NCBI GenBank assembly: GCA_046563655.1
Contig: CM102286.1
Span: forward strand, 10,416,001-10,480,000
Source: Yuukianura sp. NJ FZ-2021
Taxonomy: Eukaryota
DNA: 64,000 bases
Reading direction: 5' to 3'
Part shown: piece after piece, positions 18,101 through 60,610 of the stretch
How the letters are laid out: each line of letters opens with the position of its first letter
Position numbering within the stretch: position 1 is the stretch's first letter
Made by a program: the position numbers and the translations under genes
Notes under the pieces: generated by a model
Databases searched by the model: none
The model's input: only the letters and a program-made list of their open reading frames with translations
What the model was told of the DNA's origin: nothing

Positions 18101-19646
18101 TCAATGTTCAGCTGTGGTTGAAATTGCCTTGAGAACTTGTTTTAATTCAAAGAATGAAGAAATTGTCATTATTTTATTAGTAAGGGAATGGAACTTACGC
18201 GGCAAATTCCGAAAGGAATCAATCGAATCCGACGTATTTTCAGTGTCTGGGTCAAAATTACAAATTTCTGCGTTCGAGATATATCTAGCATCTCCTGTAA
18301 GGTTGTTCCAGCAGTGTTTCATGTGAATTTTAACAGCATACTCATTGGTATACGTTTCGATGTAAACATGGATGTGGAGTTTCTTGACCTTCGGAAATCG
18401 GAAAATTCCCTCCAACGTTTCAGAACACACATACAAATCTTCAACGTTTGGTAAAACCAATGGCCAATGCCTACAATCTTCCCCACGTCGTATATTGATC
18501 TTTGCAAATTTCACATTTGGAAAAACACATCCAGAAAAACTGAACTTATCGCCGTCGTATACCATGCAGTCGAGCGTTGTGAGAACTGGAAATTCCATGT
18601 GTGGAAGTACAGGAGTGTGTAGATTGTCAACCGTCAAACGCTGCAGATTTATGAGGGAATGGAGCGGTAGTTCTAGTGGAGGCTTAGGCTGGTAAGGACA
18701 ACCGTTAAATCTCCTGTCGTCATATTTCAGAGAAAGCTTGCGCAATGGCGCCAGGTTTTCAATCCATTTTGACAAAATTTCGCCGGTTTCAGCTAGTGGT
18801 TGTGAATTGTAATTGCGAATGTCAATTCTTGCAGGCATGTATAACTGCAAATCAAGAATTGTGAATCGTGTTGAAATTGCAACCATATTTTTTAGGTCAG
18901 ATATTTTCATCATTGGAAGCTTTAGCTCTATGTCCAACTTTTGTATGTGAACGGTTCCATTGATTTTATACAGTTGGTTTAAAATGTTTGTGACAAAGGC
19001 TGGCGTTCTACAGTTTTCGATTGAAACGTTCCGGAGGTTTGGTGCTTTTTCAAAAATTTGACTCAGAAGCGAAAGGAAGTTTTCGTTTTTAGAGGTATAG
19101 TCTTCCGTGATCGTGATAGTCTTCAGATATCGGAGTATAGGAATTCCTGTGACTTCGCTCATTTCCTTATCGGCAACTATTTCTATGTAGTTTATTTCTT
19201 CCACGTTGTCGCAGTTTTCCAAGAAGATTTGAGTGTTTTTTGAAATCCAATATTTTGCCGGACGAACCGAAAAATCCTTCACGAAATTTTGCCAGAATTT
19301 CACATTTTTCCCAAACTGGACACAAAACTGCTTCAAATGCTGCGCGGTTAATATTTCGCCAAATCCAAACTTCTCAAAGGGCACAACCGATTGGTTTTCA
19401 AACATTTCCACAAACTTCACAACGTCCGAGTCATTTTTAAAGTCCACTTGAAACAATTTTGGTAGAAATGGTGTTGCTAAGAAGTTGAAGCGTATATTCA
19501 CAAGACGGAGGTTTGGAACTTCTTTCTTCCTCAAGAAGCCAATGATATCAAGCAGTATCTGAAAAATAGGTAAAGATATATAGGTTAATAGTTATTAACA
19601 AATTAGTAATTATGTTTAAGTTTACTTCATTTGGAATGTAATCCAT
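18101..19646 (-). CDS. F-box/LRR-like protein
   Basis: Micro-exon MDYIPNE (19646-19626) splices to ILLDIIGFLRKKEVPNLRLVNIRFN (F-box), followed by LxxLxL-type repeats. A further 3' exon is likely after the donor at ~18198. Confidence 0.8.
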
Positions 19647-22969: not shown

Positions 22970-23353
22970 CAGTAACGGTGTAAATTCGGATTTTAGTTCC
23001 GGATATTTAACGGATATGCATCCTTCCAAATCCGGATTTAAAAAAAATCGAATCCGGATTTAACGGATTTTGTGTTGCATATGACGGTATGGAGAGTCGA
23101 AAACTCGAAGTCGACAAACGCAAAATTTAATTTAGGTAAAAAAAATTCCTACTCCAAATTAATCAAAACAAGCATTCCTGAAGTCCGGTAAAACTTTCCT
23201 TTTTCAATACTTGGAGTTTAAAATAAAAAGAGGACGAAAAACTGAAAAATGTTCTAATGGGAAATCCGGATTAAAATCCGGAGTTTTGAATCCAAATCGG
23301 CAAAAATCCGAAGTCTGGATTTGTAAAAATCGGTAACGGATTTACACCCCCTA
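22970..23353. mobile_element. Degenerate MITE in intron 2 of the TCAF-like gene
   Basis: ggtgtaaattcgg / cggatttacacc ends with many internal tccgga/cggat repeats. TSD unclear. Confidence 0.5.
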
Positions 23354-24969
23354 CGCACCACCAATAACATTCATAACATTTTCCTAACTTTTTTTTCAGT
23401 TGCTACAAGACACCGGAGTTGCTTGGAATGGCTCCTACGAACCGATGCCAATTGAATCCGACAAAATTGGCTACACTTTCCGTGCAGAATACTTGGAAGA
23501 TACGAACGCCAGCATATGCTGGGAATTGTTGCTATGGCACTTGACCAACAGAATCCGACTTCCAGAAGATCGGCTTAATCAAATCGCAGCAATACTTAGT
23601 GTTGCTGCCGACTCGGTAGCAAATACCGGCCCAGCAAGTTTTCACGCCAAATTGAAATTTGAACTGGAAGAAGCGGGAATAAAGGAGAGCATTCCTTCTC
23701 AACACCATGCAATTTCAGACACTTTGGAAAAATTCAAAATCAAAATGATGGTTAACTATGTTTACAACGCAGAGGAAGCTCCAGGCAGTACAGATCACAC
23801 ATGCCACTGTCATCCAGCAGCCTGCTACTTTCCTGAACTCCCTTCATCAGGGGCCGTCAGAGTTCAAGGTCACTCGGTTCAAATTGAAACTACAGTAGGG
23901 TGTAGGATCGGATCTTACGGCCATTTATTTTTAGCTCAGCCGCGGGGGCTAGTCGGGCGCAATATTGGGGAGGGGAAAACCCCTCAAAAAATACATAATC
24001 ACAAAATCTCAACATATAAAATGGCAAAAAGTCAAAAATGCCAACAACAAGAAAGGCCGACATCAATAAGGTCGACAACAAAAAAGTCAAAACACAAGTA
24101 TTGAAGTATTGGAATTTTTCATAGAAAATTCGAAAAGTTCTTTTCAAAACAACTTGTCACAAGAAAAAACGTTTTTTGAAAATATTTTAAAATAGCATTC
24201 AACCATTGTTTCGATGGCTACTTAAACAGCGAGCTCTGATTCTAGAAATCGTCAGTTCTGAACTTAGTAGTGGAAATTACAACATTCCTACTCCATAGCC
24301 ATTCTCAAAAGATGGAATTGGGGAGGGGAAAACCCTCAAAATCTAAAAAGTTTCCAACGACAAAACACTGACAAAAATATCAACATCAAAAATATCAACA
24401 ACAAAAATGTCAACAACGAGTACACTGATGAATCTAAATATTCATCGTTTATCCCAGCAAATACACCGTTTAACCTGACAAATTCAACGATTACCCTGAG
24501 AAATCCACTGATCAACCTAACAAATTCGCTAAATAACTTATGAAAATGGCCGCCTACGCTAATCCCTTTGTTGTTCAAAATTATTGAAAGCTGTCTCTAA
24601 CCGTATGAAACCGTATGTAGCCGTCTGTAACTGACTACGACGCTTCCGGAATCTATTTTTTAGAACTCGCATACACTACGCCACGTTCCCGGCCGCCGTG
24701 AAAACTTCAGAATTTGCTAATCAAAGTCTCCAGAAGTTCTCCAGTATCAAGACCGCTGTCCAACTTTCCAGATCCCCCAATATTTTAAAAGATGGCTACA
24801 GAGTACAAAGTATTCAAGCTGAAACGCTTGAACACCTCATGGCTACAGCGTTGGATTTATCAAGCCCAGTCCTGGGGGAGCCTTTGGGCCGTGTGAGCCA
24901 GCCTTTGGACGCCAGCCCTTGGACGCCAGCCCTCAATTCGCATGAATTTTTAACGTAATATAACAACTT

Positions 24970-25475
24970 CACTGCATAATACAATGGCCTCTCTACATAA
25001 CACAATGGCGTCTCTGCATAATACAATGGCCTCTCTGCATAATACAATGGCCTCTCTGTATAATACAATGGTCTCTCTGCATAACACAATGGCCTCTCTG
25101 CATAATACCATGGCCTCTCTGCATAATACCATGGCCCAGTTGTATAATACCACAACGTCATTACATAATGCCGAGTTTATTCTGGACAACATAGCGAGTT
25201 TGCGAGAGTAAAGTCAGACTTTGTCAATGTCACGGGAACTTACTCCGTGAGTACACCTTTGCAGAGTTCTTCCTCGGAATTATTTCCCGCAGGTAACCTT
25301 CCTTCGAGAGTCAGATCATCGTCAATACCATGGTCACGTTGTATAATACCATGGTCACATTGTATAATACCATGGTCACGTTGTATAATACCATGGTCGC
25401 GTTGTATAATACCATGGTCACGTTGTATAATGCCATGGTCACGTTGTATAATACAATAACCTCACTGCATAATAC
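24970..25475 (+). repeat. Two 21-bp tandem arrays in the left TIR
   Basis: Units ATAATACAATGGCCTCTCTGC (~24970-25170) and ATAATACCATGGTCACGTTGT (~25323-25475); mirrored at ~28115-28590. Confidence 0.95.
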
Positions 25476-25546
25476 AACATTTTTTGTCAATTTTACATCC
25501 AACCACCACCACCACCACAACCCCAACGTGCCCACCCATGCAAAAG

Positions 25547-25612
25547 TATAAATAGCGACGTTGACTTGCTCATCTCTCAGTTTCATTTCAGACGTTGAGC
25601 TGTGAAGACGTG
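25547..25612 (+). promoter_or_regulatory. Pol II core promoter (TATA-Inr-DPE) at the inner end of the left TIR
   Basis: TATAAATA 25547-25554; arthropod Inr TCAGTT 25577-25582 (A+1 = 25579); AGACG exactly at +28 to +32 (25606-25610). Confidence 0.8.
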
Positions 25613-25648
25613 AAGATTTTACCATCTGGAGCGGTTAGGCTAACAGTC

Positions 25649-27033
25649 ATGGCGCAAAAATACATTCTTGTTCACGAAGACGACTACAACAGTCTACTGG
25701 ATCAGCTTGAGACATATGAGTCTCAGCAAAACAGCCCTTGCAAAAGTTATTTTGGAGAAAAGCAAATCCATGATGGTTTTTTGCCTGATACTAAACCCGT
25801 ACAATACTTACAGCAACATACAATGAACATGTCTCAGAACCGTGGACCAATGGAGCTTCATGAGCGTAATTCGCGAGATTCTGGGAACAACATTCCAATC
25901 GAACTTCAGAATCATATGATGCAAACGGAATTACGCCAGAACTGGGAAAATCAACGGAAGCAAAGGGAAGGCTACGTCAATGTGAACGTTGTAAACGATA
26001 GGCGGTTGAATGATATGTCTACAAGTCACTTTACCGGATGGGATGGTGGACCGGAAAAGTCAGCCAGAAAAACCGAAGACAGATATGACCGAATTACGAC
26101 CTGGTCAGAAAATCCAACGAATGGTTGGTCAAATACTGTGGTAAAGCCGAATGACGCGCTCGAGATACCATTTTCCAAGAGATTTAAAAAAGAATCGCAA
26201 ATAGCGAAAGATGAAACGCCGACAGCGGCACCGACAACTCCACCGTTTACTCTGGACCAGTTTTCAGCTGTTGGAAAACAGCTAGCACAATTTTTTGTAG
26301 CAAATGGTGCAACCTTTGCGAACAATAGCGTTAGTCTGGGTGATGCCAACATACCCAGGAGCGAGTTCGAGGAGGGAATACGAAAACTTGCGGATGGAAG
26401 ATATAAGTTGACAAGACAAATGATTCCTGTCATCGTAGACTTTATGATTCAGACAGGCATTCCAAAATATCTGCTTCCGATCAGCCACCGAGGCTTGCTC
26501 GGTGGAGATGAAGCTAAAAAGCTTTCTAGAAATCGCCCGCACGTGGAAAGTGATGTAGAAAATGAAGAAGAAGATGATGACGAGGAAGACGTGGGGGATG
26601 AAGAAGTAGAAGAAGAAGTAGAAGAAGAGGAGGAAAACGAGGAAGACGAAAGGGATGAAGAAGGGGGAGAAGAGTATAGACAAACTGGAGGAGCTAAACC
26701 ATCACCAGGTCCCATACGACATTATCAATTTCTCCACCAGATGAACCAACACTCCCCTATTATACGCGAGACACTTCTCTCCACAGCGTCTCCTGGTCAA
26801 ATTCTGGGGTTACACAAATGTGTTCAGGACGTAATCCAGGGCAACATTCCTATTGAGGCCACCGTCAAAAATATCTTGAGACCGCATCGATATAAGATTA
26901 AACGTGTTGCAGAAGCTAAAGGATCGATTGAAGACAAGAAAAACTACTTATACAGCACGGCGGGTTCCTGCCAGCTCTTCTCGCTGCCGCATTACCAATA
27001 CTTGGAGAGTTTCTCACTAGCGTAATTTCGTAG
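25649..27033 (+). CDS. Putative Maverick virion-core/accessory polyprotein
   Basis: ATG at 25649 (MAQKYILV); acidic tract; LLGG and QTGG motifs; a ...CVQDVIQGNIPI...ILRPHRYKIKRVA... domain. The -1 frame after 26938-26944 gives KLLIQHGGFLPALLAAALPILGEFLTSVIS* (stop 27033). The unshifted ORF stops at 27025. Confidence 0.75.
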
Positions 27034-27081
27034 AATTATACACCTTTATGACTGTATATTCGTTAGATTCCGAATTTTCAA

Positions 27082-27127
27082 AATAAAAAACTTGAAAATA
27101 GAACTTTTATCGTGTAGTGTGTTTATT
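27082..27127. terminator. Opposed polyadenylation signals between the convergent genes
   Basis: AATAAA on + at 27082-27087 and on - at 27122-27127, within a ~100-bp intergenic gap. Confidence 0.55.
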
Positions 27128-27130
27128 CAT

Positions 27131-27946
27131 TCATTCATTAGCATAGATTCGACAATTTTCAGGAAATATATTATCTCTAATGCGAAACAAATCATTTTGT
27201 CGTTGAGTTAAATCGATGAATAGATATCCATATTGCTTTGACATGCATTCCTTGTAGGCTTCTTCCATGGTTGTATTCTTCTTTCCTCCATTCATTTGAC
27301 GTCCAAGACAAGCTACAAATTGAGAGTCTCGCGGATTCTTCATTAGAGCAATGTAGTGACAGTTTGACGTGATTTCTTTCATATTCCTGTGAAAAAAGTT
27401 TTGCACAAGAATGATGAGTGATACGTTGCGGTGATGCGAAGTCCTTGTGAACGCAGCTCCAACTTCTCCGTTTTTGCCTGCTTCATGCATCAAATCGTCA
27501 AGGACGACGACTGACGGCTTGTCGGTTCCGTCATGCCATTTTTCAGGGAGCCCACGATGAAATTGTATAGTTGGAATCTTGGTCTTCAATTCTCCAAACA
27601 GCGTAGGCTGGAACTCAGTGTAGCAATACATGATACGTTCCAATGGCTCGTCAATATTAGTCTCGATAATTTCGTTTCGTCGTAGAAGTATTTGCTTTAC
27701 AAGGGTGCTTTTGCCGCTCTGAGTCATTCCACTGATGCACATAGTAAACGGTGCAAACAAATGCGGGTCAAACTTTTTCCCAGAGTGTACATGTCGAAAC
27801 ATAGTAGATTTTTCCCGCTGATTCATGCATACCTGAAGCATTTTCGATACTGCGACGCTACTATGACAAGTTAACTTGTGTCGTTTCAATGCGTCCCTTC
27901 GTGAGAATTGTCTGCAGCAAATATCGCACGCTGTACTGGTATCCAT
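27131..27946 (-). CDS. C2H2 zinc finger fused to an A32-like (FtsK/HerA superfamily) DNA-packaging ATPase of Polinton type
   Basis: CDICCRQFSRRDALKRHKLTCH finger; Walker A GMTQSGKS; Walker B VVVLDDLM; FTRTSHHRNVSLIILVQN; KNPRD; YGYLFIDL. Intact 271 aa. Confidence 0.92.
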   Translation of the reverse strand: MDTSTACDICCRQFSRRDALKRHKLTCHSSVAVSKMLQVCMNQREKSTMFRHVHSGKKFDPHLFAPFTMCISGMTQSGKSTLVKQILLRRNEIIETNIDEPLERIMYCYTEFQPTLFGELKTKIPTIQFHRGLPEKWHDGTDKPSVVVLDDLMHEAGKNGEVGAAFTRTSHHRNVSLIILVQNFFHRNMKEITSNCHYIALMKNPRDSQFVACLGRQMNGGKKNTTMEEAYKECMSKQYGYLFIDLTQRQNDLFRIRDNIFPENCRIYANE

Positions 27947-27964
27947 AATGTATAGTCCACAGAT

Positions 27965-29684
27965 TCTTCACGTCTTCACAGCTCAACGTCTGAAATGAAA
28001 CTGAGAGATGAGCAAGTCAACGTCGCTATTTATACTTTTGCATGGGTGGGCACGTTGGGGTTGTGGTGGTGGTGGTGGTGGTGGTGGTGATTGGATGTAA
28101 AATTGACAAAAAATGTTGTATTATGCAGTGAGGTTATTGTATTATACAACGTGACCATGGCATTATACAACGTGACCATGGTATTATACAACGTGGCCAT
28201 GGTATTATACAATGTGACCATGGTATTATACAACGTGACCATGGTATTGACGATGATCTGACTCTCGAAGGAAGGTTGCCTGCGGGAAATAATCCCGAGG
28301 AAGAACTCTGCAAGGTGTACTCACGGAGTAAGTTCCCGTGACATTGACAAAGTCTAGACTTTACTCTCGCAAACTCGCTATGTTGTACAGAATAAACTCG
28401 GCATTATGTAATGACGTTGTGGTATTATACAACTGGGCCATGGTAATATGCAGAGAGGCCATTGTATTATGCAGAGAGGCCATTGTATTATGCAGAGAGG
28501 CCATTGTATTATGTAGAGAGGCCATTGTATTATGCAGAGACGCCATTGTATTATGTAGAGAGGCCATTGTATTATGCAGTGAAGTTGTTATATATTACGT
28601 TAAAAATTCATGCGAATTGAGGGCTGGCGTCCAAGGGCTGGCGTCCAAGGGCTGGCGTCCAAGGGCTGGCGTCCAAGGGCTGGCTCACACGGCCCAAAGG
28701 CTCCCCCAGGACTGGGCTTGATAAATCCAACGCTGTAGCCATGAGGTGTTCAAGCGTTTCAGCTTGAATACTTTGTACTCTGTAGCCATCTTTTAAAATA
28801 TTGGGGGATCTGGAAAGTTGGACAGCGGTCTTGATACTGGAGAACTTCTGGAGACTTTGATTAGCAAATTCTGAAGTTTTCACGGCGGCCGGGAACGTGG
28901 CGTAGTGTATGCGAGTTCAAAAATAGATTCCGGAAGCGTCGTAGTCAGTTACAGACGGCTACATACGGTTTCATACGGTTAGAGACAGCTTTCAATAATT
29001 TTGAACAACAAAGGGATTAGCGTAGGCGGCCATTTTCATAAGTTATTTAGCGAATTTGTTAGGTTGATCAGTGGATTTCTCAGGGTAATCGTTGAATTTG
29101 TCAGGTTAAACGGTGAATTTGCTGGGATAAACGATGAATATTTAGATTCATCAGTGTACTCGTTGTTGACATTTTTGTTGTTGATATTTTTGATGTTGAT
29201 ATTTTTGTCAATGTTTCGTCGTTGGAGACTTTTTAGATTTTGAGGGTTTCCCCTCCCCAATTCCATCTTTTGAGAATGGCTATGGAGTAGGAATGTTGTA
29301 ATTTCCACTACTAAGTTCAGAACTGACGATTTCTAGAATCAGAGCTCGCTGTTTAAGTAGCCATCGAAACAATGGTTGAATGCTATTTTAAAATATTTTC
29401 AAAAAACGTTTTTTCTTGTGACAAGTTGTTTTGAAAAGAACTTTTCGAATTTTCTATGAAAAATTCCAATACTTCAATACTTGTGTTTTGACTTTTTTGT
29501 TGTCGACCTTATTGATGTCGGCCTTTCTTGTTGTTGGCATTTTTGACTTTTTGTCATTTTATATGTTGAGATTTTGTGATTATGTATTTTTTGAGGGGTT
29601 TTCCCCTCCCCAATATTGCGCCCGACTAGCCCCCGCGGCTGAGCTAAAAATAAATGGCCGTAAGATCCGATCCTACACCCTACT
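27965..29684 (-). repeat. Right TIR (1720 bp)
   Basis: Inverted copy of 23894-25616. Confidence 0.97.
27969..28034 (-). promoter_or_regulatory. Mirror-image TATA-Inr-DPE promoter upstream of the ATPase
   Basis: TATA at 28034-28027; Inr A+1 = 28002; DPE at 27975-27971; ATG at 27946. Confidence 0.8.
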
Positions 29685-30876
29685 ACTACAACAGAGCAGT
29701 GGTACTCTACCGGTTTGTATGCTCCGCCTGGCGAAGAAATTTCTGCTAAATTTTCTCAGGCTCCTTACAAAAAATTTGTAATTCAAATTGGAACTCACCA
29801 GGACGACATTTCCAAAACACCGGAGTGGCAACGGTGTCCGGTAATTCTTGTTCGGAAGGATTTGCGTACCGGCGGCACGGAACTTCGAATACGGAATGCC
29901 TTTGGTGGGTTGATCTACTTGCATCAAACCGATACCGGAAAAAAACTAGAGTTGGTCGACCTCACCATTTCAGGGGCCATTTTGGCACCATATTTTGTTT
30001 TGGGCAAAACAACGTTAGATGAGTGGCACCAAATTAAAAATTATGGAACTCTTTGCCCATGGGGAGAACTTGAGACGAAAAAACTCGTTTTAACTCTTCC
30101 TGGCTCACGATTGGCTGAATTGGAAAATCCAATTGAACTTATGGAGTATTGGGATCAAGTGATGGATGCCCAAGCAGATTTGGCGGCAATTCCAAGAAAC
30201 CGACCATACCCAGAACGGCTCTGCGCAGACGTTCAAATTTCTGCTGGTTACATGCACTCTGGGTATCCAATCATGATTCTTACCGATAAATCTGTTGCGA
30301 CTGCGTTGTCAGTGGCCGAATTGAAAGGTGAAGAAGGGTGGGGCTTCTACCACGAAATTGGACACAACCATCAAGTCAATACTTGGACATTTTATCTTGT
30401 CACGGAAATTACAAACAATATGTTTGCTTTGTATGTTTACGAAGAAGTGGTCGGAATAACGCCTGCCAAGGCACGCCCAGATAAATTTGAACCCAGTAAC
30501 ATAAGAAGTGCGATTGAAGCTTGTGCTGAGAGGGGTGCAGACTATGAATATTGGGCCAATGACCCCTGGTTGGGCTTGCTCTTCTACTACCAACTGAAAG
30601 TCAAGTATGGCTGGGACACTTACAAAAAAGTTTTCAAAAATTATCAAACTTTGGAGCCAAAACCAGATTCTGAACAAGACAAGGTGGATACTTGGTTGGT
30701 CCAATTTTCATTGGCGGCGGGAGAAAATTTGACGCCGATGTTCAAAGCCTGGGGAATTCCAGTTCGAGATGAAGCGGTGGCCAAAGTAATCCATTTGCCA
30801 CCGACTGACCAAAATCTCTTTTCACTCATTCACAATTAGTTGCCGGTTTGGCACTGCTAAACTTATATGCAATCCC

Positions 30877-34246: not shown

Positions 34247-35858
34247 CGTAGCAGGTAATTTGGTCGGAATTATTTGGTCGGAATTGAAATGATCGGAGGT
34301 GAAATGGTCGGAAGTGAATTGGTCGAAAAGTGAAAACGTCGGAAGTGAAAAGATCGCATACTAAAATGATCGCATCATGAATTGGTCGAAAAGTGAATTG
34401 GTCGGAAAGTGAAATAGTCGCAACAAGAAAAGGTCGAATCAACAAAATGTCGAAAAGTCATTTTGGTCAGTGATTTGCATGAAATTTATTTTCCAGATTG
34501 ATTTCAGGGTGCTGAACTCGCATCTGCAATCAGATTTAGGCGGACTCCTCAAACAACGAAATGCCTTTAAAGGACACCTACGGGAATTGGTTGATTTTGG
34601 GCCCATTTCGCTTTCTCGCCGTGTAAATTACTGGGCCCAGGATTCATGTGTACTTTGATAACAAAATTGTACTTTTGAATTGCACAATTACCACCTGGGT
34701 TTTATAGTGCACAAAATCCACTTTTCAGGTTTTTACATTGCACAAATTCCACTTTTCGGGTTTTTAAAGTGCACATGTACCACCTTTCGGGTTTTCACAC
34801 TGCACATGTTCCACTTTTCGGGTTTTTTAAGTTGTACACTTAAACTTTTGTGTGGAGGACTGAACCATTTCACAGGTTTTCAGTTTTTGAAATGCACAAT
34901 TTCAAATTTTGCAATTTGTGAATGGTGCACTTGCTTACTTTTGTGTTTTTTATATTGTACAATTTCAAACTTGTCGGTTTTTGATGTTGTACAATTTCAA
35001 ACTATTGAGTTTTCAAGATGCACAATCGTCCACCTTTCGGTTTTTGTGCTGCACAAATTCCACTTTTGCGTTTTTTTGTGCTGCACAAATTCCACTTTTT
35101 CGTTTTTTTGTGCTGCACAAATTCCACTTTTGCGTTTTTCCTGCACAATTCCCGCAATTGGGTTTTGCTTACTGTACAACTCCAAACTTTTGCGTTTTTT
35201 CGTTGCGAAACTGTTAACTCTTACTGCAAACATCGCCCAAGAACACGGTTGCCGAAGCATTTTCCCTATTTTTGCAATTTTTTGAGCTTCAAATCCGCAA
35301 AAAGTTGCCGGAGTTGGACCCCAAGTTGGACCAGTATTTGAAATGACGTCATTTTGAAAATTTCACACAGTTTTCTAAAGGGTTTCATCTAGCTATCCTG
35401 AAAATTTCATCATGTCGTCATTTCAAATACACCCACTTTTGCCGGGGCCCAAAACACGCCGATAATCGAATCCCTTCTTTCCCGCGCCGAAGGCGCGGTT
35501 AGGTTTGGTTAAGTTGACAATAGTGATTAGATTTGTAAGTTAGATTAGGTTACTGAGCTTATATACGCTTTTCATGCAAATCGGAGGCAAGAAATTCAAA
35601 GAAAATCACTAAATTTTGAAATTCTGGATCACCTTCGACATTATTACTTTTCGACATTTTCATGATTCGATCTTTTCTTGTTACGACTATTTCACTTTCC
35701 GACCAATTCACTTTTCGACCAATTCATGTTGCGATCATTTCAGTATGCGATCTTTTCACTTCCGACGTTTTCACTTTCCGACCAATTCACTTCCGACCAT
35801 TTCACCTCCGATCATTTCAATTCCGACCAAATAATTCCGACCAAATTACATGGAATCG
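34247..35858 (-). mobile_element. Foldback-like element, same end family as 20022-20863, opposite orientation
   Basis: ~200-bp inverted arms of 15-bp ggtcggaa subrepeats; ends cgtagcaggtaatttgg ... ccaaattacatggaatcg; TSD actcaac (34240-34246 / 35859-35865); internal ~24-bp tandem array at 34660-35200. Confidence 0.8.
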
Positions 35859-36661: not shown

Positions 36662-39600
36662 ATGTCGCCCTGGACGTTTGTATTTTGTTACATTTGCTTC
36701 AATGTCGCCATTTCCACTCACGCCAAACCCTCTGCCGGTAAGCAAAGTTTTTTTCTAGTTGTGAAAAGATTTGAAATGTAGAACGTTAATTCTTGCGAGT
36801 TTGTCCAGCATAACAGCGTATTTGAATTAACGACCAAAATATTTTAAGATTAATAACCGTTTCTTTCTTTAAAACAAGCATGCGCAGCAAATAGTGTCAG
36901 GCATTGATTTCAAATTAAAATGAAATGTCCATGATAAGATAGAAAACTGATTTCATTTTAAAAATCGCCCATTAAAAAATAATGAAATTGATTAAAAACA
37001 TCAGAAGTTGTTTAATAACGTTTTTGTTAACAGTACAAGATCCTGAAAAATTATTTCCAGCAGCTTCTGTGGAACAAACCGCGAATACAAGCATGCTAGA
37101 TGCAAGGAATTCCAGTACGAGTCGATCCTCTTCATGGGACGAATCCAGTGTAGATGGACCACTTTGGAAAGCGTCGGCGCGTTTGCCGTCTTCAATCAAA
37201 TCCGGAGGAACTGAACAGAGCAGGTACAATATACGTCGAGACGGTAGTTTATCAATTGCTTTAGAAGGTGACTCTAAACAATTCAGCGACTTCCCACCCC
37301 AGCCCAATAGGTATTTTTCATATGGTCCCACTCCTACTCACGGTCAATGGTCCCACCTTAGCAGTCCCACCCAAAAACCCACGGAACTCAAATCCTTTTC
37401 CGTTGTCATCTCCGACGTCGATGTCGTTGGGAGTTACGCACCGCTGGAAAGTTCAAAAGTGACGGACGCCTACTCATCTCTCGGTTGGGAAAGCTACAAA
37501 TTAAGTTCACATAGTATTCATCGCATGAATGCAGCATGGCGCCTAAATCCAAACAGTAGCACGCGTTTATCTGCCGATGACCTCGCCCATTTTTTGTCCC
37601 GCTACTCATCTCCATATGCCCGTCCCGGTTTCAACAAGCTTCCCAGAAATCCTGAAGAAGAGTCTGAAAGTTTAGACGGCTTTTCCGGAAATCCTGAAGG
37701 AAATTTTATGAATACCAACTTTTCAAGAAACTTAAACGGCCAACAAATGTCTCGTTCGGAAAATTCTACTGAGAGAAGATTGATTGAAAGTCGAATTCTT
37801 TCTAACGAGAGTCCTGAATACCGTGACCGAAAGAGTTCCAACAATAGTGAAATCTTGTTACAAGAATTGATGGCTCAACTTGAAAAGTTTGATCTTCAAA
37901 ATGGAAGTCATGCCGAGAATAATTCATTTAGTTCAAGTACTAATGGAGTCAATAACTCACAAATCCTTAAAGACACTCGAATGAACAATCCTCAATCTTC
38001 AAATTCATCAGAAACAGAAATAGATGCGGCCAATTTGAAGAAATTGATGACCCTCCTACTCAAAACGGGAGAATCCATCACATCCACAACTAAAGAAGGA
38101 GCACAAGTTGTCAATATCGTCTTGACACCAAATTCAACCGCACTTGACGAAAACCAAAGGATCCATTTTCTGCAGAATTCATACTTAAAGCAACTTTTAA
38201 ATTCGGCACTCGATGACCCCAGCGTGAGTTCAATCGCTCAACAAGTTGCTTCTTCGCTGTACTCACCCACGCCTCTTGGTGAAAAAAATTATGAAGTTGA
38301 AACTTTAAGTAATTTGGGTTCAGGAGCAACTGCGTGTGCAAATTGCAATCCTGCGGCGGATGTCGAGGTCATGCCGATTAATAACGAGCATTTAATTTCA
38401 AATAATCCACATTTAACGGTGTCTTCGACTCCTGATGGTTTTCCGCTGGCTGGAAATGGATTTCTGAATCTTAATCATCCAAACCTACAATTTCATCAAG
38501 CACTTCATCATCTAGTGATTAATGGCACCGCACCAACAATAGTTAATGCCACTGCTAAAACAAATGTCATCAACGTCTTTGTAATTAATTTTAAAACGAA
38601 TGCTCCGGCTACTCAAAATTTCAAAATTTCAGAAACTACAACACCGCCTCCGACTTCGACGATATTCCCATTCTTAGCTGGACTTAAACCTCCCGCAACG
38701 TTCAACCAACTTAACCAAATTCTTAGAGAAGTAACTCCTCCGCCATTGACAATCACAGCGCAATCCCCCTTTGCAACAATTCCCGAACAGCATCTAGAAA
38801 TTTTGAAACACCGTTTCAAAAATCCAAAACAATCTCCGTCTCACATTACCCCAATAAAACAAGACTTTGCATTATCCCATACTCCTCCTGTGATGAAGGC
38901 CCCTTCACCAGGAAGAATTGACATTTTGGATTTGCTTCCAGACGGTTTAAATTCTTATACAAAAGTTGAAAAAGATGACTTCAGAATTCCATTACCATCG
39001 AATTTGAAAAATTCTGAAGTTACAGACGACACTGACACGCCATTGTCCACACCGGAGCCTGACATTGCTCACCTGAGTTGGATTCTTCATCAAACATATT
39101 CTAATAAGCCTCAACCAAGACCAAGTATTTACCGAAATCGTCTTCTGCCATACCTGTCGCCTTTCCACAACAGTGAAGATGCGCTGAACAATGGAAACTC
39201 AAGACAGCCTTATATGAAATCCCACTTCGAAATTTCGAAAAAAGCGAATCCTAGTTCAATGACTGCTGATGAGCAACCAACCATGTCTGAAAAGAATGAA
39301 ACAGGATTTTATGATTTTTTTGGAACTATTAAACCAATCAGAAACCAGCCGGTGTTAATGGATAATGAAAATTCAGAACGTATCGGAATTGAACCGATCG
39401 TTAAGGGTAAACAGGAGTTTAATGGAACTGGCATGAAGACGCGGGTGAATAAACTTTTGACTGCTTTACGGGTCAATGCAGTTCCAACGTTAGCGGCTGG
39501 GGCTGCTATACCGATACCTCCATTGGCTCCTATGATAGCTTCTGATCATAGTCGTTTACAAAGAAGTGAAAATAGCTCTGCTTTCGCGTTACGATCAAGT

Positions 39601-40560
39601 GACACTTTGAAAGTGGAAAGTGGTTCCTGGTCAAAAGTGGGGGTTGTGCCAGAAATTGGCGAATCTAGCACAAGTGCAGCAACTGTCATTCGTTTGAAAG
39701 CTGATGTGAACGACACTGTCGAGCAGAAACAGTCGCTTGACGAGGGCACAGTTGAAAAGTGGATCAAAGTTGGTGTGATTAGCGAGGAGTCATTCTCACC
39801 TACTTTGAAATCCCAAAATAGTACAACAACGACATTGGCCTTCTCACCACCAGTAGTGAAACCACCAGTGGCGTCTGTGCTTAAGCCACAACTAATAGAA
39901 TCAGCCAACAAAAGAACATTAGAAAATGAATCGGCAAGGGATGTTCCGTTAGTTAAAAATTTTCTTAAAAATGTTCTTGCCAATGAATGGAACATTTCAA
40001 CCACGACCAACACGACCAACGTCTTTTCATTATCCCAACCATTACCACAACATACTTCAGAGTACACTGAAGAAACGTATGATTCTGGCTCATCTTCTTC
40101 ACCAATTTCCTTTGAAGAAGAAGGTACACAACAATTAGGACAAGAATTTGACAAGATCAACAGAACAAAAATAACTCTCGTCTCTCCCACGTTTGAAGCA
40201 GCAATTTCAAAAATTCCCTCGCATTCACAATCTCTAAATCTGAAACACGGAAGCTTTGCTCCCTTGCAGACTTTATCACCCCCGGCTTCTGATCACTTCT
40301 TCGCCTCAAATCTCAATCGAATCTTACCGCTTGATTCCCTTCATCATTTTGAATCAAATTCAAAAGCCAATCGAGTTCCCACCATTTTTGAAAAGAAAAA
40401 ACTGAGAAAGAAGTTGGGAGCCGTTATTCAAGAGGCTACCGCAGCCTACTCTGCCGGAGCTCTGCTTCCAATTTGGTTCCCTGTTCTTCTGGGGAAGTTT
40501 AATTTGGCAATGAATAATGAACTTCCCATAGACCAAACCATTGCTACTGAAAATAGTTAA
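36662..40560 (+). CDS. Large secreted Ser/Thr/Asn/Pro-rich protein
   Basis: Signal-peptide exon 36662-36737 (MSPWTFVFCYICFNVAISTHA) splices in phase to 37034; >1170-codon open exon with hydrophobic patches. May join 40858-42490. Confidence 0.75.
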
Positions 40561-40857
40561 AGTTGTATCGGGAGATTAATTGACTTAGCTCACAGCCTTA
40601 TTGGCACACATCGAAATTCCATTTATCAGATCCTGCCCTGCAAAAAAAATTGCAACAGCTTTCCTTTTATTTAGTGCCGATTTCTGGTAGTGGGAACGGG
40701 GATTCTAGGATAGTTGGGCTATGGGTGCTAATGGTTTTTGTTAACAAACCACTTAAGTATAGATGTCAAGTTATTAATAACAGATTTCAACAATAGACAA
40801 TCAAGTTGACAATTGAGACAAATGACAAACAACGGTCCTTTCTTTATGTTTTGACAG

Positions 40858-42490
40858 AGCAATTAGCACGGACAAGCCCTTGACAAAGGAATTGATGACG
40901 ACTGCTACTGCCGACGAACAATCAAATCCTGACGACTTGTTCCCACCAAACAGAAAACGAGATAATCGACGACTGTACAAGTTTGGTAAAAATACACACG
41001 GGAAATTTGATGACAATTTGGACACTTCTGGAATTGACGGAGAGCATGAAGAACCATTGGTACAATCGCTTTCGGCAATGGCATCCCATTTGATTGAGAG
41101 TCCCGAAGAATCCTTAGAAAATTCAGCTGAAAAAGACGTTTTTCTTCAAGCTCTTCATTTGGAAAATGCTCCACAAAATGATAACATTGGTGAACAAGAT
41201 TCTGAGAACCAAAATAATTCTGGTGGCGGAGAAGATGAGACTGGGGTTACCGGAACTCCGTTTGACCTTGACGAAGATAGTGCAGAACAAAAGGTCAAAA
41301 CAACTCTGACCTCAATGGAATTCGAAAGATTGCGGCCGCAATCTTGGTTTTCAGACAGCATTCTTTCTACTACTCCAAAAGGCCTAACGACATGGAGTGC
41401 CGTCAACGGTGGCGGCATCCACAGTCACAATCACCATGCAAATCTTGAGTTCAAACCTACAGTTCAAAAAATGCCGTTGCCAGAATACGCTTCAGGAATG
41501 CTAGACTTTCAATCTAATCGAATGACCACAACACCAAAACATTCCACCACTACGCCAAAACCATCCACGACAACCACAGCAGCACCAAAGCCTGTAACTC
41601 AAACCGACGCAACAACGACCACAACTGAGCTAACGACAATGGCTAACATAGCGCCTGCGCCTGCCCGACGCAAACCTCCTGCATACACCCGATTTAAACC
41701 GAAACGACCGACGCATGACAAATACATAAAGCCCCAACCGGACAATCTTGTTGCAAAACCAATCGCTTCTGACGAAACACACACTAGGTTTCAATTGGTT
41801 GTACCTGAAAAGAATGCCCAGTATAACCGACCCACAAAACGTCCTCAAGCATGGCCTATGAATCCGAGTACTAAAAATACAAAAACCACTCAAAGCCCTG
41901 TCAAAAAAACACCATTCTTGAGATTCACAAATAAGCCTTTCACTACCATGGTCAAGGCCACTAGGTCACCACCATCTCTTAGCCTAACAACGCCACCTAC
42001 AACAACTGTCAGCACTTCCACGACTGTTGCAAGTTCTACAACCGTTTACCTCAGAGATCCTTATCCCACTCCACTAATTAATGCATTTCCTCTATCATTT
42101 GCAAATATCCCGTTTTTTGATTTTCTTCGAACTCAAATTTTCCCGCGAATTGGGCTGAGTCTCCTCAGCCTAATGGCTTCTTCTCCCCTAATCCTAACGT
42201 TGCTTGGGTCGGGAGTAAGTGGAGTCGTGGGAAGGCGCAGAAGAGATGCCCATACGAATGACAATTTTGAAATTCAGGACGACTTGAGTGACAGACTTCT
42301 AAATTTGGACAAAGTGTTGAATGGGCGTGACAAAATTGTGAATAGGAGACAAAAGAGGAACGAAGATGAGCATCCTGCTGCTATTCTTTCCGCTAAATTC
42401 ACCGCATTGCTTGCAAGACTGCTTAACAAATACCTAGGCATTGAAATTCAAGGAATGAAAAAGAACGGAGAGAGCAAAGTTAAGACCTAA
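40858..42490 (+). CDS. Thr/Pro-rich mucin-like exon with a hydrophobic segment followed by GRRRR (probably the 3' part of the preceding gene)
   Basis: 536-aa ORF after the acceptor ttgacag; FPRIGLSLLSLMASSPLILTLLGSGVSGVVGRRRRD. Confidence 0.75.
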
Positions 42491-46642: not shown

Positions 46643-47581
46643 AAATGTCAAGCTCCGCGCTAAAAGTCACAAAAAACTTAGAAATACTCAAAGAAAAAAA
46701 TATTAATCTGTTTCTTCATAATATAAAGCGTAGCTCTCAATTATGAAATGAATTGAAGCTGTAGTGTAAATAGGTGGGTTAAAATAATAAGTTGAAAAAA
46801 AAATAAATCAAAACTTAATAAAATAAATTTTCGTTAGTACATAATCTCATTGGATTAAAAAAAAGCTCGTGCTTTCAAAATGTTTATTTTATTCAAATCA
46901 AATCCTTGTAATAGTTTTGACCGAAGGCAGTGTCATGAAGTATTCCGTCTTGTTGGGTTATGGTTCGGCGAGTAATTGTGCCTCAACGTCTTTTTATGGT
47001 CTAGTTACTCCCTCTTACCTAATTCTTTCCAGGCACCCAGCGCCCTGAACTCTTCACACACTGCCCTTGACGTGCTCTTCATTTTCAGAAACCGTCAACC
47101 TACCTTGTTATGTCATTATTATGCGACAACAATTTTCAACCTAATGCTAACGGTGGATTCAGTTCTGCACAATAGTTCCGTTTTCTTCTTCTGTCGTAAA
47201 GCGTCCAGTCGTATCCTAAAGAAAACTGTCACACAAAATATTGTAATTTATTTTGAGTTGCACAGCAGGCTTGGGTGACATAATAAGATCAGCGAAACAA
47301 TACGGATAATAAAATATGAGTTTAGCTTAGGAGTTTTGTGTCATTTTAATCCAACTTCAACTTTTAAAGAAATCACGAATTAAATTAAACAAGAAATTGT
47401 TTCAAACAAAGCTTTTACATGTCAGTTGAAAGTTTTTCAAGGTTTGGACAAAGGAAATGTGACACATTTGAATCAACTCTAAGGTAACGTAAATTGACTA
47501 GGACTAAACATAATTAAACGTTGTTAAGTTTAGCCAGTTTCATATGTTTTTGGATTAAAAAACCAAACGTAATAATTTCAG

Positions 47582-50500
47582 ATGAGAAAGAAGCACACGC
47601 CGACAATAGTGAAAGTTGCATTTCAAACCGTTCTGTTAGTATACCTCATTTCACCCTCATCCCTGCTTTCTCCGCCTACACTGGAAGCTGAGGGAGGACT
47701 TCACACAAGCACAGTAAGACCATGGCCCAGTCACGAGTTTTTAGAAGGCTTAATTTCAAACCTCACTGGCTGGAAAAAATCAGGAGCTCTAACAAACAGA
47801 AGTGCTAGAATAACTTCAAACGTTGAACATGACTTAGAAAAAGTACATCAAGTCTCAACTGAAAATGTGTCAAATGTCGAAAATACAAATCCATCAAGCG
47901 ACAAAGTTCTGGAATCAGCACTTACTGTGGAAGTGCCAAATTCCCAAGTGGCTTCAAGAAATCTGGAATTTGATGTAGATTTAAATTCGGGAGAGCTCCG
48001 AATTTTGAATTTAAATTCAAGCTCACGTGGGATATTTCATATCAACACTACACATCATGATTCATCGGAAAGCGAAGTTTTTGTTCAAGACAGAAGTGCT
48101 GCCGACTTTGATGAAACTGGAGATTTGGGTATTTCTACATCAACTACAAGAAATAAAGCCGACGCACTTCAACGACTTGTGGACATTCGAAAATATCGTG
48201 ACGAAAACTTTTCAGCTAACAAAGGAGGGATGGGCGGCATTCATTGGGTGAACGGTTCTAAGCTTCAGCGCCGAATTCAAAATATTCGCAGCATGGCACC
48301 TTCTTTTCGCAAACTTTGGGCCGTGAATTCCTTCGGGATTCCAGCAGGTCCCACTGCGCCAGTTATTCCGTTGTTCACAGGATTACCTCCAAAGGAAACC
48401 GCTCTGGAATCACCTCTAAAGATCTCGGATACTAAAAACGCCCCGCCTGTTCCGCAACGTCACATGGGGCGAATTCCAGCCGTAAGTTTGGGAATTGCGC
48501 CGGTGCGATTGAAGCCAACGGCTGCAAAACCATCAAAATTCACTTCTAAGCCGATTGCTTTTTATTCGTCAAAAGTGGATCTTATACCGGGGCCAACAGG
48601 ATCAAGCTCATTAGAATCCATATTTGACTTTTCCCGGCCAACTCCCGCTCGAACATCCAAAACAAAGCCGAAGCGTCCATTATCGCCTGCAATAGCGGCA
48701 GAAACAGAAGTCGATGAGTTCAAATCAAGCGATGAAGAACCGATTACGACTTCAGCCTCGACTACTGCTGTTCCCACTGTATCAGAAATTCTACTGAAAA
48801 TTTGGTCTTACACTAAAGATGGCTTGAAGCTTCAATTCCTTAAACAAGTTCCATCAGTTCTTTCACAGGGGCTCAATTTAAGTGATGACGATGTTTTAAA
48901 TTTGGAAAGTCTCCCGCTTCAGATGAGAAAAAATGTTGCATCTGCTTTCAATCTAACCAACTCTATAAGCAAAAGACACAGTGGACCTGGTGACTTTGAA
49001 GCATTTCATTGGCAACAACTTCCAAGCGTCAGTCCTAGGACGACATCAACAACGACACATTCCCCTTCCATACTGCGCCGTTCGCGATGCCACCGAGGCA
49101 AGTAGCCCTCAATTATATAATTTGGTCAACGCCAACAACGACGCCAGCACCTCCCTCCACGACGCACTCCCAACTACTGGCAGACGCAATTGCCAATCTT
49201 TTGTTAAATGCACCAGTGATAAATTCGACACCAATTTCCATATACTCTTTGAATTCTCAAGATTCAGGTTTGTCACTTGAACATTGTTTTTCAAATTTTA
49301 AATTTTAAATCTGTTAGTTTTTTCTTGTTTTGCGTTAAGTTTTGAAACTTTTTTCATTCTTTTTAGGCTTGAACAAAATAAGCGAAAATGAATTAATGAC
49401 AAAAGTTGCATCGATGGCTCACATGATCTCAAAAATTAACAAAGAATTTGGAACACGGAAACCTTCCAAGCATCAACTTAATCCAGAATACGGTAAACCA
49501 TTAAAGAATTCTGAAAGTAATCAAGAAAGTAGCGTTGAAACGCCTACTGGTTTGGCAACTCTTTTTCCAATGTACATCAATAGTCTCAAGTTCACACAAT
49601 CTGCAATTAGCGGTGATCGATTCCCACTGCAAAGCCCAACCGCGCCTTCACGACCAATCAGAGGAACTGAAAAATCTGTCATTTCATCACAGTCGAATGA
49701 CTACGGATTCTATCCTCACTCGGCTCCAGGAGGCATTGTTACTAAAACCCGACCTCTTACATACACGGATGACTTTTCCTTGAAGAATATTAGGAAAAAA
49801 TTAAAGAAGAAAAAGAAAAGGAAAAGGAAGAATTCCACTAAGGCTTCGACGTTTTGGGATCCCGGAAATTTTGACTTGAACTACAGTTTTGGAGTAGACT
49901 TTCTTGCAGCGTTGCGAAATATATTTTATACAGTTTTGGCAGTCAAAGCGGCTCCGTGGATTCTCTTGGCGCTGCTAGCAATTATACCACTAGCAATTGT
50001 AGTATTTCCGACAATTTTCAAAGGAGCGAAACTCGCAGAATGGATTTGGAGAATCTTACATCCGGCTACCAAAATTCATCACCACTACTATCCACACACC
50101 TTCAAACACGTCCACCATCGACCGATCTACGCAGGATGGTCACCAGCTCACGCTGGATGGGCTCCACCACAGCCAATCTACAGCGGATGGTCGCCAATAC
50201 CACGCTACCGCGGATGGTCGTTTCCAGCCCACAGTGAATGGTCGCCTCCATCTAACAGCGGATGGTCGCCTCCCCGTTACAGCAGTTGGTCGTCAACGCC
50301 AGGCCCCATTGGGTGGTCTCCACCAATTTACAAAGGATGGTCGTCTACGCAGAGACCAAGATATCGTGGATGGTCACGACAGAAAACACACCATCGTAGA
50401 ATGGAGGATTCCAGTGATGACGTTGTTCCAAGCATCAGTTCACTGGTGGAGGAAACGTATGGACAACAAGAGACTTCAATTGACGATCAACCTACTGCTC

Positions 50501-50787
50501 ACCATATAGAGGATGGTCAACTGACTACAACGGCGTACTCGCTGGATTCCGCCGAACTTGATACTCTTCACAATCGCAAAGTAATGGAAATTCTAATGAA
50601 TGCCAAAAATATTACGCTACAAAAACTGCTGGAAAGTTGGGAGTTGGAATTCCCACTGCCAAGCAAAACGTTGGGTGAAAGAACCATCGATCCTGGAAGC
50701 GAGGGTGAACGTAAACGAAAAAAGAGGAGCCTGTGCACTCGCAAAAAGCGAGTGTTGCAAATTCCTGCCTCAACAACAGTTACTTAA
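47582..50787 (+). CDS. Large secreted/membrane protein with poly-Lys tract, TM helix and GWSP repeats
   Basis: Signal-like N-terminus; frameshift near 49070; intron ~49268-49366; KKLKKKKKRKRK; APWILLALLAIIPLAIVVFP; HHHYYPH; about 10 (G/S/E)W(S/A) repeats. Confidence 0.7.
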
Positions 50788-60393: not shown

Positions 60394-60610
60394 AAAAGTT
60401 ACGTGGTTACACAATGTTACATAGTGTAGTGAAAATAATAAGGCGACTTTCGTAGTAAAGCGACTTTCGTAGTAATTCGTTTCGGTGTAGTTCAATTTCG
60501 AAGTAAAGTAGCTTTCGTAGTAAATCGACTTTCGTAGTAATTCGTTTCGACGAAATTCATTCGTCGAAATGCGCTTCGTAGTAAATTCGGCGAAATGGCA
60601 TGGATCCGTA

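Follow-up and report, generated by a model that had tools for sequence, protein, structure and literature searches.

Mavericks/Polintons are regarded as genuine animal viruses, but observations of their particles and life cycle are scarce. Repeat libraries also hold non-autonomous Polinton families, which are shortened, keep their ends, and depend on full-size elements. For Mavericks, PMC10748475 quotes terminal inverted repeats (TIRs) of 100–1500 bp and target site duplications (TSDs) of 5–8 bp, and PMC8097293 quotes TIRs of 46–1447 bp and reports AGT-type tips with a 5–6 bp duplication, (AGT)2//(ACT)2 end motifs, and a pPolB-ATPase-PM-PZ module. Transpovirons of mimiviruses are small (~7 kb), TIR-flanked linear DNAs with few genes, a zinc-binding protein among them, and no capsid genes; according to PMC5499653 they are carried in another virus's particle and are thought to derive from polinton-like viruses by gene loss. 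They are tied to giant viruses of amoebae, encode a fusion of an SF1 helicase with an inactivated polymerase, and lack a packaging ATPase. Virophages and polinton-like viruses are often dependent on or associated with another virus. They encode their own major, and usually also minor, capsid protein (PMC5499653).

Here we describe an element of 5791 bp at positions 23894–29684 of the window, the whole 64-kb stretch of DNA that was analyzed. Like autonomous Mavericks (adintoviruses), it has TIRs with AGT-type tips, a 5–6-bp TSD, and an A32-like packaging ATPase that falls within a clade of polymerase-linked Maverick ATPases. Unlike them, it has no gene for a protein-primed polymerase, integrase, protease, or major or minor capsid protein, its two genes are convergent, and two accessory families (A and B below) are fused. 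At 5.8 kb it is also far shorter than full Mavericks (13–25 kb), whereas its 1.72-kb TIRs exceed both quoted ranges. It shares retained ends and a presumed reliance on full-size elements with the non-autonomous Polinton families, which were compared by name only. Transpovirons are similar in small size, TIR-flanked form, scarcity of genes, lack of capsid genes, and presence of a zinc-binding protein. However, the helicase–polymerase fusion is absent among the element's ORFs, and the element is integrated with a TSD in an animal-type gene. Virophages and polinton-like viruses belong to the same wider virus group and share the A32-like ATPase, but the element encodes no capsid protein. We found no literature description of a build that retains just an ATPase gene and one accessory gene, flanked by ends with promoters.

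The architecture given in a preliminary description of the locus (a 5791-bp element with ~1.72-kb TIRs, AGTAG/CTACT tips, an ACTAC TSD, and a 2348-bp core with two ORFs) was confirmed by alignment and an ORF check (Table 1). The TIRs are ~99% identical over 1677 aligned bases. Aligned globally, they span 1766 columns, of which 16 are substitutions and 89 contain gaps, a similarity far above chance, and the longer gaps are all confined to the 14- to 21-bp tandem arrays. The tips read AGTAGGGTGTAGGATCGG at the left and its complement at the right, and are of the AG/AGT type (AGTAGG//CCTACT, compare the end motifs in PMC8097293). A TSD of 5 bp lies within the range given in PMC10748475. The alternative 6-bp reading, ACTACA, is inherently ambiguous, as element base 1 equals the base after the right-hand TSD copy, and we favor 5 bp because the tips are symmetric. 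The unique core (25617–27964) holds two convergent ORFs 105 bp apart. The inner edges of the TIRs bear a TATA box and an initiator-like sequence and are separated from the downstream start codons by 33 and 18 bases. We infer a promoter role from these motifs. The suggestion that each gene sits behind its own promoter stands insofar as promoter-like sequence precedes each, but because that sequence is part of the TIR it is identical for both genes. Nothing else in the 64-kb window resembles the element (0/53 BLAST pieces outside it).

Table 1. Features of the element and its insertion site (positions in the 64-kb window)
Feature	Position	Strand	Evidence
Interrupted host exon, left half; open frame running into the element	23388..23893	+	
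Left TSD copy, ACTAC, 5 bp	23889..23893	.	Sequence; empty-site joint skips 5796 = 5791 + 5
Left TIR, 1723 bp; tip AGTAGGGTGTAGGATCGG; 15-, 21-, 14-, 21-, and 21-bp tandem arrays	23894..25616	+	
TATA box GTATAAATAG (25546–25555) and initiator-like TCAGTT (25577–25582), inner left TIR, upstream of ORF1	25546..25582	+	Motifs
ORF1 as assembled, 458 aa; family-A domain, acidic linker, family-B domain	25649..27025	+	
Family-B tail (LLIQ.GGFLP and hydrophobic end) and stop codon, out of frame with ORF1	26938..27033	+	
AATAAA polyadenylation-type signal downstream of ORF1	27082..27087	+	Motif
AATAAA polyadenylation-type signal immediately following the stop codon of the ATPase	27122..27127	-	Motif
ORF2, 271 aa; C2H2 zinc finger (residues 6–28), then A32-like packaging ATPase	27131..27946	-	
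Right TIR, 1720 bp; mirror TATA box (28026–28035) and initiator-like motif (27999–28004) upstream of the ATPase	27965..29684	-	
Right TSD copy, ACTAC	29685..29689	.	Sequence and empty-site contigs
Interrupted host exon, right half; M60-like_N, then Peptidase_M60	29685..30839	+	

The insertion point lies in a coding exon of an M60-like peptidase gene, an observation that adds to the preliminary description. The insertion point is exactly where the M60-like_N match starts, at position 14 of the profile, and the host reading frame stays in phase across the site.

ORF2 encodes an intact packaging ATPase. It matches Pox_A32 (PF04665) at 24.8 bits (Pfam cut-off 22.8) and retains Walker A (GMTQSGKST), Walker B (VVVLDD), and 14/14 invariant columns of a 30-sequence alignment, including G73, G78, K79, D150, and D151, which bears out the earlier characterization of an intact packaging motor. 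Among 76 homologues found, the highest identity is 74%. The ATPase groups with Maverick ATPases in a clade of five rows (support 100/98), one member of which, L009, is a zinc-finger ATPase directly behind a PolB C-terminus. The C2H2 finger is thus not peculiar to the small element. In a scan of 14 related metagenome loci, DNA_pol_B_2 was present in 4, rve in 6, and an adenain-type protease in 1.

ORF1, previously labeled a core protein, is instead a fusion of two orphan Maverick accessory families, for which we found no Pfam or PDB sequence match. Family A forms the N-terminal part (start KY..H.DDY, core at about residues 190–290), followed by an acidic linker (about 300–345) and the family-B domain (about 355–430). 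On related Maverick contigs these families occur beside ATPases. In 60/80 loci, the gene immediately downstream of the ATPase, on the same strand, belongs to family B, an arrangement that recalls the vertebrate module of PMC8097293. Family A follows the ATPase as a fusion partner in L001 and P0002, and in L013 it adjoins family B. The A–B fusion itself is absent from 1.84 billion representative proteins (0/22 matches cover both domains). The GGFLP motif and hydrophobic tail of family B may resemble adenovirus protein X. A Pfam search with 9 family members gave no adenovirus pX match at E up to 1, and a PDB profile search returned nothing relevant. Adintovirus accessory proteins with pX-like C-termini have been described in PMC8502044. 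As a correction to the preliminary ORF description, the frame breaks at an A-run just before 26938, placing the conserved tail (26938–27030) in another frame. Contigs of all four read sets vary by one letter in length at this run, and some contigs of read set X4 carry a 4-base insertion.

These genes and ends make the element a well-supported candidate for a non-autonomous derivative of an adintovirus-like Maverick/Polinton, because its ATPase clade has a polymerase-linked member and because families A and B lie beside ATPases on Maverick contigs. The Maverick derivation proposed earlier is strengthened by the same clade and fits the AGT-type tips and the 5–6-bp TSD. The proposed loss of replication, integration, and capsid genes also holds, with polymerase, integrase, protease, and capsid genes all absent from the element. 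Neither element ORF matches DNA_pol_B_2, and rve matches were found neither in the element nor among 21 large window ORFs scanned. The 2348-bp core leaves no room for further autonomous-Maverick genes. Across the 64-kb window we found no polymerase, integrase, or capsid genes and saw no helper Maverick. The only window matches to 80 Maverick loci were ORF1, ORF2, and one antisense frame overlapping ORF2, and no other window ORF matched the polymerases or other genes of these loci.

Read contigs show that the element is one copy of a multi-copy family and that, as the preliminary description had proposed, it integrated in its present form. An empty-site joint (23891>29688) occurs in contigs of X1, X4, and X5, three read sets from one sample. 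The 5796 bases skipped equal the element plus one TSD copy, independently confirming the element edges. These contigs are 5–9% diverged from the window flanks, with three different ones in X1, and may come from paralogous loci and not from the other allele. Contigs cross the left TIR/core border (X2, 25425–26796; X1 and X5, from 25589), the right border (X1, 27758–27976), and the convergent gene junction (X1, 26870–27643; X2, 26807–27963; X5, 26787–27888), and are ~99–99.5% like the window. Word depth, our estimate of copy number though not itself a copy number, is 1958–2148 in X1, 113–118 in X2, and 171–206 in X5 for element contigs, compared to 87–127, 2.1–3.3, and 48–49, respectively, for flanking exon contigs. 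Core, TIR/core borders, and gene junction therefore stand at 4 to about 50 times flank depth under two organism labels, with a ratio that varies among libraries of one sample (~4× in X5, ~20× in X1). The empty site and these high-depth contigs together indicate a multi-copy family rather than a one-off deletion, and same-build contigs above flank depth remove the reading of a single copy that suffered a deletion after insertion. In the read contigs, other elements match the TIR over no more than its outermost 87, ~160, or 424 bp (loose ends at 29598, 29523, and 24317/29261).

We interpret the element as one copy of a multi-copy non-autonomous Maverick derivative that needs replication, insertion, and capsid functions supplied in trans by a full-size relative (probability roughly 0.8). 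It would have kept the parts needed in cis, namely long TIRs with AGT-type tips, the presumed substrates of the Maverick polymerase and integrase, together with a small block of accessory and packaging genes, and would have lost the protein-primed polymerase, integrase, protease, and both capsid genes. With polymerase and integrase gone, copying and insertion would depend on trans-acting enzymes from full-size Mavericks of the same genome. Insertion into the peptidase exon produced the 5-bp duplication. Since the same TATA and initiator-like sequence closes each TIR, transcription of both genes probably proceeds inward from identical promoters and would end at the AATAAA motifs in the 105-bp spacer. 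One gene encodes an A32-type packaging ATPase that bears a zinc finger, the other a protein in which two Maverick accessory proteins are joined. Our preferred elaboration, though itself less likely than not, is that both products aid packaging of the small genome into helper capsids, for example through binding of the zinc-finger ATPase to the 21-bp repeat arrays in its own TIRs. Alternatively, the two genes may be mere leftovers of a recent deletion.

The latter alternative, a functionless derivative in which internal deletion, with or without rearrangement, of a full-size Maverick left two genes beside the ends, has a chance only somewhat below even. Such an element would have amplified only because short elements with good ends copy well in trans. 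Non-autonomous Polinton families exist (Polinton-1N1 is named in one paper), and PMC8097293 gives 96% of vertebrate Maverick loci as degraded. Where this copy departs from the majority contigs, the changes look like neutral decay, with no sign of selection on the genes (11/15 coding differences listed alter an amino acid), and ORF1 is frameshifted in this copy. The TIRs also reach both genes, as they would had the parent carried these genes at its termini. However, no parent with ORF1 and the ATPase at opposite ends is known, and both genes keep their start, stop, and polyadenylation signals. The nearest relatives carry the ATPase and then family A on the same strand (L001, P0002), or PolB before the ATPase (L009), orders that would not yield convergent genes after one deletion. 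A single simple deletion therefore does not suffice to explain the origin of the element, unless an unseen parent had another gene order.

A true satellite, or hyperparasite, is possible but doubtful. Both genes would be under selection for letting a 5.8-kb genome compete for the capsids of a helper Maverick, the ATPase recognizing its own repeat arrays as a packaging signal and the A–B fusion serving as a virion or core component. The compact, symmetric build with identical promoter-like sequence and polyadenylation signals for both genes is consistent with this possibility, as are the intact ATPase, the occurrence of the same multi-copy build under two organism labels, the absence of the A–B fusion from the representative proteins, and a convergent order that is not a plain remainder of that in the nearest relatives. 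On the other hand, the copies show no sign of purifying selection, ORF1 is frameshifted in this copy, some X4 contigs carry the 4-base insertion, a zinc-finger ATPase also adjoins PolB, and so young a family would retain open frames without selection. Unlikely in our view is the full combination, in which a streamlined satellite steals the polymerase, integrase, and capsids of a resident Maverick and itself expresses, from promoters within its enlarged TIRs, only a zinc-finger-guided packaging ATPase and a fused accessory protein of the virion. Capsid hijacking, as first proposed, would be one part of it.

It is improbable that the element serves the host or interferes with active Mavericks, its ATPase or A–B protein poisoning their assembly as defective-interfering genomes do. 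A single assembly enzyme kept without the capsid it serves would suit this general analogy, but this copy destroyed a host coding exon, and the family is multi-copy and mobile in the manner of a parasite. It is barely credible that the assembly is at fault and has joined two Maverick ends by collapse or chimerism. Inverted repeats of this length and tandem arrays do pose assembly problems, and no contig listed spans the whole element. Against an artefact, the 5-bp duplication is clean, the host frame is in phase on either side of the element, the length skipped by the empty-site joint is exactly as predicted, and independent contigs from two studies bridge the TIR/core borders and gene junction.

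As a young, multi-copy dependant that should move only when a helper is active, the element is a natural marker of Maverick activity, and its insertion has just knocked out a host gene. The two kept proteins and the TIR repeat arrays point to what is needed in cis for copying and, perhaps, packaging. Giant viruses and phages have satellites, and the element also offers a test of whether the same is true of virus-like transposons in animals. If the satellite reading is true, an animal Maverick would have its own hyperparasite, an integrating counterpart of transpovirons and phage satellites. If the element is only a deletion product, it would still be a clean example of how non-autonomous Mavericks originate and spread.

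The inserted element, a 5791-bp sequence with long inverted ends around a core of two genes, is well supported as a non-autonomous Maverick derivative. Globally aligned over 1766 columns, the two arms differ by 16 substitutions, and 89 columns are gaps; the longer gaps fall inside 14- and 21-bp tandem arrays that occupy the inner half of each arm. Both arms share the tip sequence AGTAGGGTGTAGGATCGG..., ACTAC is present on either side of the element, and the unique core of 2348 bp between the arms holds just two convergent ORFs. The long, near-identical terminal inverted repeats, the ACTAC target site duplication and the two-ORF core proposed in the preliminary description are all real. Each inverted end includes two arrays of 21-bp units (24972-25136, 25324-25454 and their mirror copies) with a common ATAATAC(A/C)ATGG core, and copy number in these arrays varies both between arms and between read contigs. 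The first 117 bases of the element have a predicted DNA fold with z = -2.6 and a small hairpin at the tip, from which no conclusion is drawn. Rfam gave 0 matches on 23000-30500, and the 18-base tip has no exact match in the viral contig collection.

Positions of the element, its parts and the interrupted host frame within the window
Feature	Positions	Strand	Remark
Left half of host open frame	23388-23893		Runs directly into element
Left inverted end	23894-25616		1723 bp
ORF1	25649-27025	+	Core ORF
ORF2 (ATPase)	27131-27946	-	Core ORF, convergent with ORF1
Right inverted end	27965-29684		1720 bp
Open frame right of the insertion	29664-30839		M60-like_N then Peptidase_M60 (E = 1e-63)

The 64-kb window holds no second copy or likeness of the element (0/53 BLAST pieces outside it). 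Other repeats are present. A 1.6-kb direct repeat (53792-55406 and 58809-60425; 94.6% alike, 5 kb apart) flanks a DDE_1 transposase fragment (57074-57634), and an extended ORF (57667-59559), with matches of the LRR-like and Srw-type receptor kinds, begins between the repeats and extends into the second; the pair could belong to another element as its long terminal repeats, or have arisen by duplication in place. A 207-bp inverted repeat (34255-34461 and 35643-35849; 96% alike) bounds about 1.6 kb, possibly a small DNA transposon, with an ORF (34662-35285) that has no family match. Five further long open frames (36976-40560, 40826-42490, 47576-49105, 49339-50787 and 18101-19591; 482-1194 aa) lack any Pfam match at E <= 0.001 and are unlike each other and the Maverick loci.

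The element inserted within a coding exon of a gene for an M60-like peptidase, as both flanking frames and the domain match meet at the duplication. The M60-like_N match begins at profile position 14, exactly at the duplicated ACTAC, and by the coordinates, taking out the element and one ACTAC leaves the host halves in phase. That both exon halves remain open fits a young insertion. The interrupted gene (23388-23893 plus 29685-30839) encodes an M60-like (enhancin/TCAF-type) peptidase. Five DNA read sets contain more than half of the words of the stretch; four derive from a single organism A sample, and the fifth (X2) belongs to a separate study, labelled organism B. The comparison over 23400-30200 used Logan contigs from X2 and from three sets of the single sample (X1, X4 and X5). 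Contigs of X1, X4 and X5 connect 23891 to 29688, omitting 5796 bases. This length matches precisely that of the element and a single copy of the duplication, and so independently confirms the element's edges and the duplication. These empty-site contigs are 5-9% diverged from the window flanks, with three different ones in X1, and may represent a diverged allele or paralogues. At least three distinct empty-site versions occur in the reads, which points to a small gene family or to alleles that have diverged strongly.

The exact two-gene build, junction included, exists in many copies, since contigs crossing its borders exceed the flanks 4- to 50-fold in depth in two studies. The border between left end and core is crossed in X2 (25425-26796) and in X1 and X5 (from 25589), that between core and right end by an X1 contig (27758-27976), and the spacer separating the genes in X1 (26870-27643), X2 (26807-27963) and X5 (26787-27888). 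Word depth of these contigs is 1958-2148 in X1, 113-118 in X2 and 171-206 in X5, against 87-127, 2.1-3.3 and about 48 for the flanking exon contigs, where contig word depth is not copy number and the ratio varies between libraries of one sample. This variation is about five-fold, from about 4x in X5 to about 20x in X1; library type, tissue and extrachromosomal copies are each a possible cause. In the middle part of the inverted ends some bins have little or no depth, which is not read as absence of sequence because a contig that fits both arms is assigned to just one of them. Between read sets of the two organism labels the core is 99-99.5% identical (window 25425-27963 versus X2), and the flank-like contigs in X2 are only 5-8%-diverged ones; either the flanks are paralogous, or the element is far younger than the split, by recent activity or transfer.

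The second core gene encodes an intact packaging ATPase (271 aa), as first claimed from the sequence. ORF2 matches Pox_A32 above the Pfam cut-off. An alignment of 30 sequences has 14 invariant columns, Walker A and Walker B among them, and ORF2 keeps every one. It has a C2H2 finger at its N terminus, a feature shared by several of its 76 homologues from a word-index search (top identity 74%). A PDB sequence search with the ATPase profile returned chance-level or P-loop matches only, and the ATPase alignment found no relatives in the viral contig collection. A metagenome scan yielded 521 relatives, from which 80 loci were kept; 80 of the 143 listed ORFs, from 14 loci, were then scanned (longer, non-overlapping ORFs were chosen, and L052 and L054 were dropped). 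Among these 14 loci, 4/14 have a protein-primed-type polymerase, 6/14 an rve integrase (three with a chromodomain) and 1/14 an adenain-type protease, with PLA2-like and IAP-like genes also present; the scanned relatives are ordinary Mavericks/adintoviruses. In translated ORFs of the closest loci, polymerase C-termini (YTDTDS motif) adjoin the ATPase in L002, L003, L004, L005, L007, L008 and L009. A tree of 33 ATPases places ORF2 in a 5-row clade with L001, L009 and the related proteins P0001 and P0002 (support 100/98). Because L009 in this clade has a zinc-finger ATPase directly after its polymerase gene, the ORF2 ATPase, finger included, derives from polymerase-bearing Mavericks.

ORF1 (458 aa) is recognised by no family library, and its sub-cut-off Pfam matches to CDC45 and Nop14, which lie on an acidic stretch, were rejected as low-complexity. 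A word-index search gave 0 matches among 6313 candidates, and the metagenome scan with ORF1 found no relatives. Searching 1.84 billion representative proteins in full with HMMER produced 22 weak matches in two groups, here called family A (ORF1 residues about 165-316, with a conserved KY..H.DDY start and FF..NG ... GIRKL.DGR core) and family B (residues about 355-445; members about 110 aa, ending in LLIQ.GGFLP and a hydrophobic tail). In ORF1 the two domains are joined by an acidic run. As 0/22 of these matches cover both domains, the A-B fusion is unique so far.

Families A and B are both Maverick families, as their genomic neighbours show. The family-B profile finds a gene in 63/80 loci: in 60 it directly follows the ATPase in the same orientation, in L062 it does likewise but with overlap, in L013 it is divergent and in L069 it is distant. 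Family B is missing from 11 loci with room for it (L001-L005, L007, L008, L010-L012 and L028, most of the closest relatives among them), and six of the 80 have no such room. Family A occurs as an in-frame fusion behind the ATPase in L001 and P0002 and beside B in L013; an alignment search with it gave 0 matches among 2155 candidates, and it has no relatives in the viral contig collection. The continuous ORFs of ATPase plus family A in L001:72-1724 (551-aa frame) and P0002 (471 aa) could be real fusions or reflect a missing stop. PDB sequence searches with the two family profiles returned nothing beyond chance-level or P-loop matches. The earlier label "core protein" was based on a presumed likeness of the family-B tail to adenovirus protein X, which Pfam and PDB searches do not show. 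A and B may correspond to PM and PZ of the pPolB-ATPase-PM-PZ module that vertebrate Mavericks carry according to the available text of PMC8097293.

Each core gene had been thought to sit behind its own promoter. TATA and initiator motifs do precede both genes, but they belong to one repeat-borne sequence rather than to separate ones. The final 70 bases are identical in both inverted ends and carry GTATAAATAG (TATA box) and, 32 bases on, TCAGTT (initiator-like motif). The repeat stops 33 bases ahead of the ORF1 ATG and 18 bases ahead of the ATPase ATG, and AATAAA occurs on both strands within the 105-bp spacer. Because these 70 bases are the same, both genes would, judging by motifs only, lie behind an identical promoter-like sequence.

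The window copy shows signs of decay. The conserved B tail (26938-27030) sits in a different frame from the remainder of ORF1, with the break at an A-run just upstream; the window copy, or its homopolymer assembly, is the odd one, since in each of the four read sets the contigs depart from it there by one letter in length. Majority contigs differ from the window core at about 0.5-1% of sites. Comparison of copies used the 16 best-supported single-letter core differences between the two, and 157 further differences lie over the whole stretch. Coding differences make up 15/16, and 11/15 of these change a residue (9/11 in ORF1, 2/4 in the ATPase). The pattern looks like neutral decay after insertion, with no evidence of selection keeping the genes. 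We give a probability of about 0.45 to the two proteins being remnants without a role for the small genome. That they serve this genome, as the satellite reading has it, is less likely, and that they interfere with helpers is improbable. These readings all fall under a non-autonomous Maverick derivative; an assembly artefact alone does not and is very improbable beside junction contigs from two studies.

A single deletion would suffice for the origin of the element if the parent had ORF1 and the ATPase at opposite ends, both reading inward. In the nearest relatives the order is either the ATPase followed by A, on one strand, or PolB followed by the ATPase, and since these orders differ from the convergent build, at least one rearrangement, or a parent of unseen type, is needed. 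Polintons encode a polymerase and an integrase by definition in the available text of PMC5499653, so on that definition the element is a Polinton derivative and not a Polinton proper. Compared with the Mavericks in the accessible parts of PMC10748475 and PMC8097293, its 1.72-kb ends are longer than the quoted ranges, and the whole element reaches a third of the size of the smallest intact one. No description of a Maverick derivative with two genes in such a build turned up in a literature search; repeat libraries may contain similar entries. Transpovirons are the nearest life-style analogue, although they have no gene in common with the element.

The same tips are used by other element classes, since some contigs follow the inverted end for no more than its outer 87, about 160 or 424 bases before diverging elsewhere and others finish ...CTACT and continue into different flanks. 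These matching tips fit, short of proof, mobilisation in trans: with no enzyme of its own for copying or inserting, the element must rely on copying and insertion enzymes from outside.
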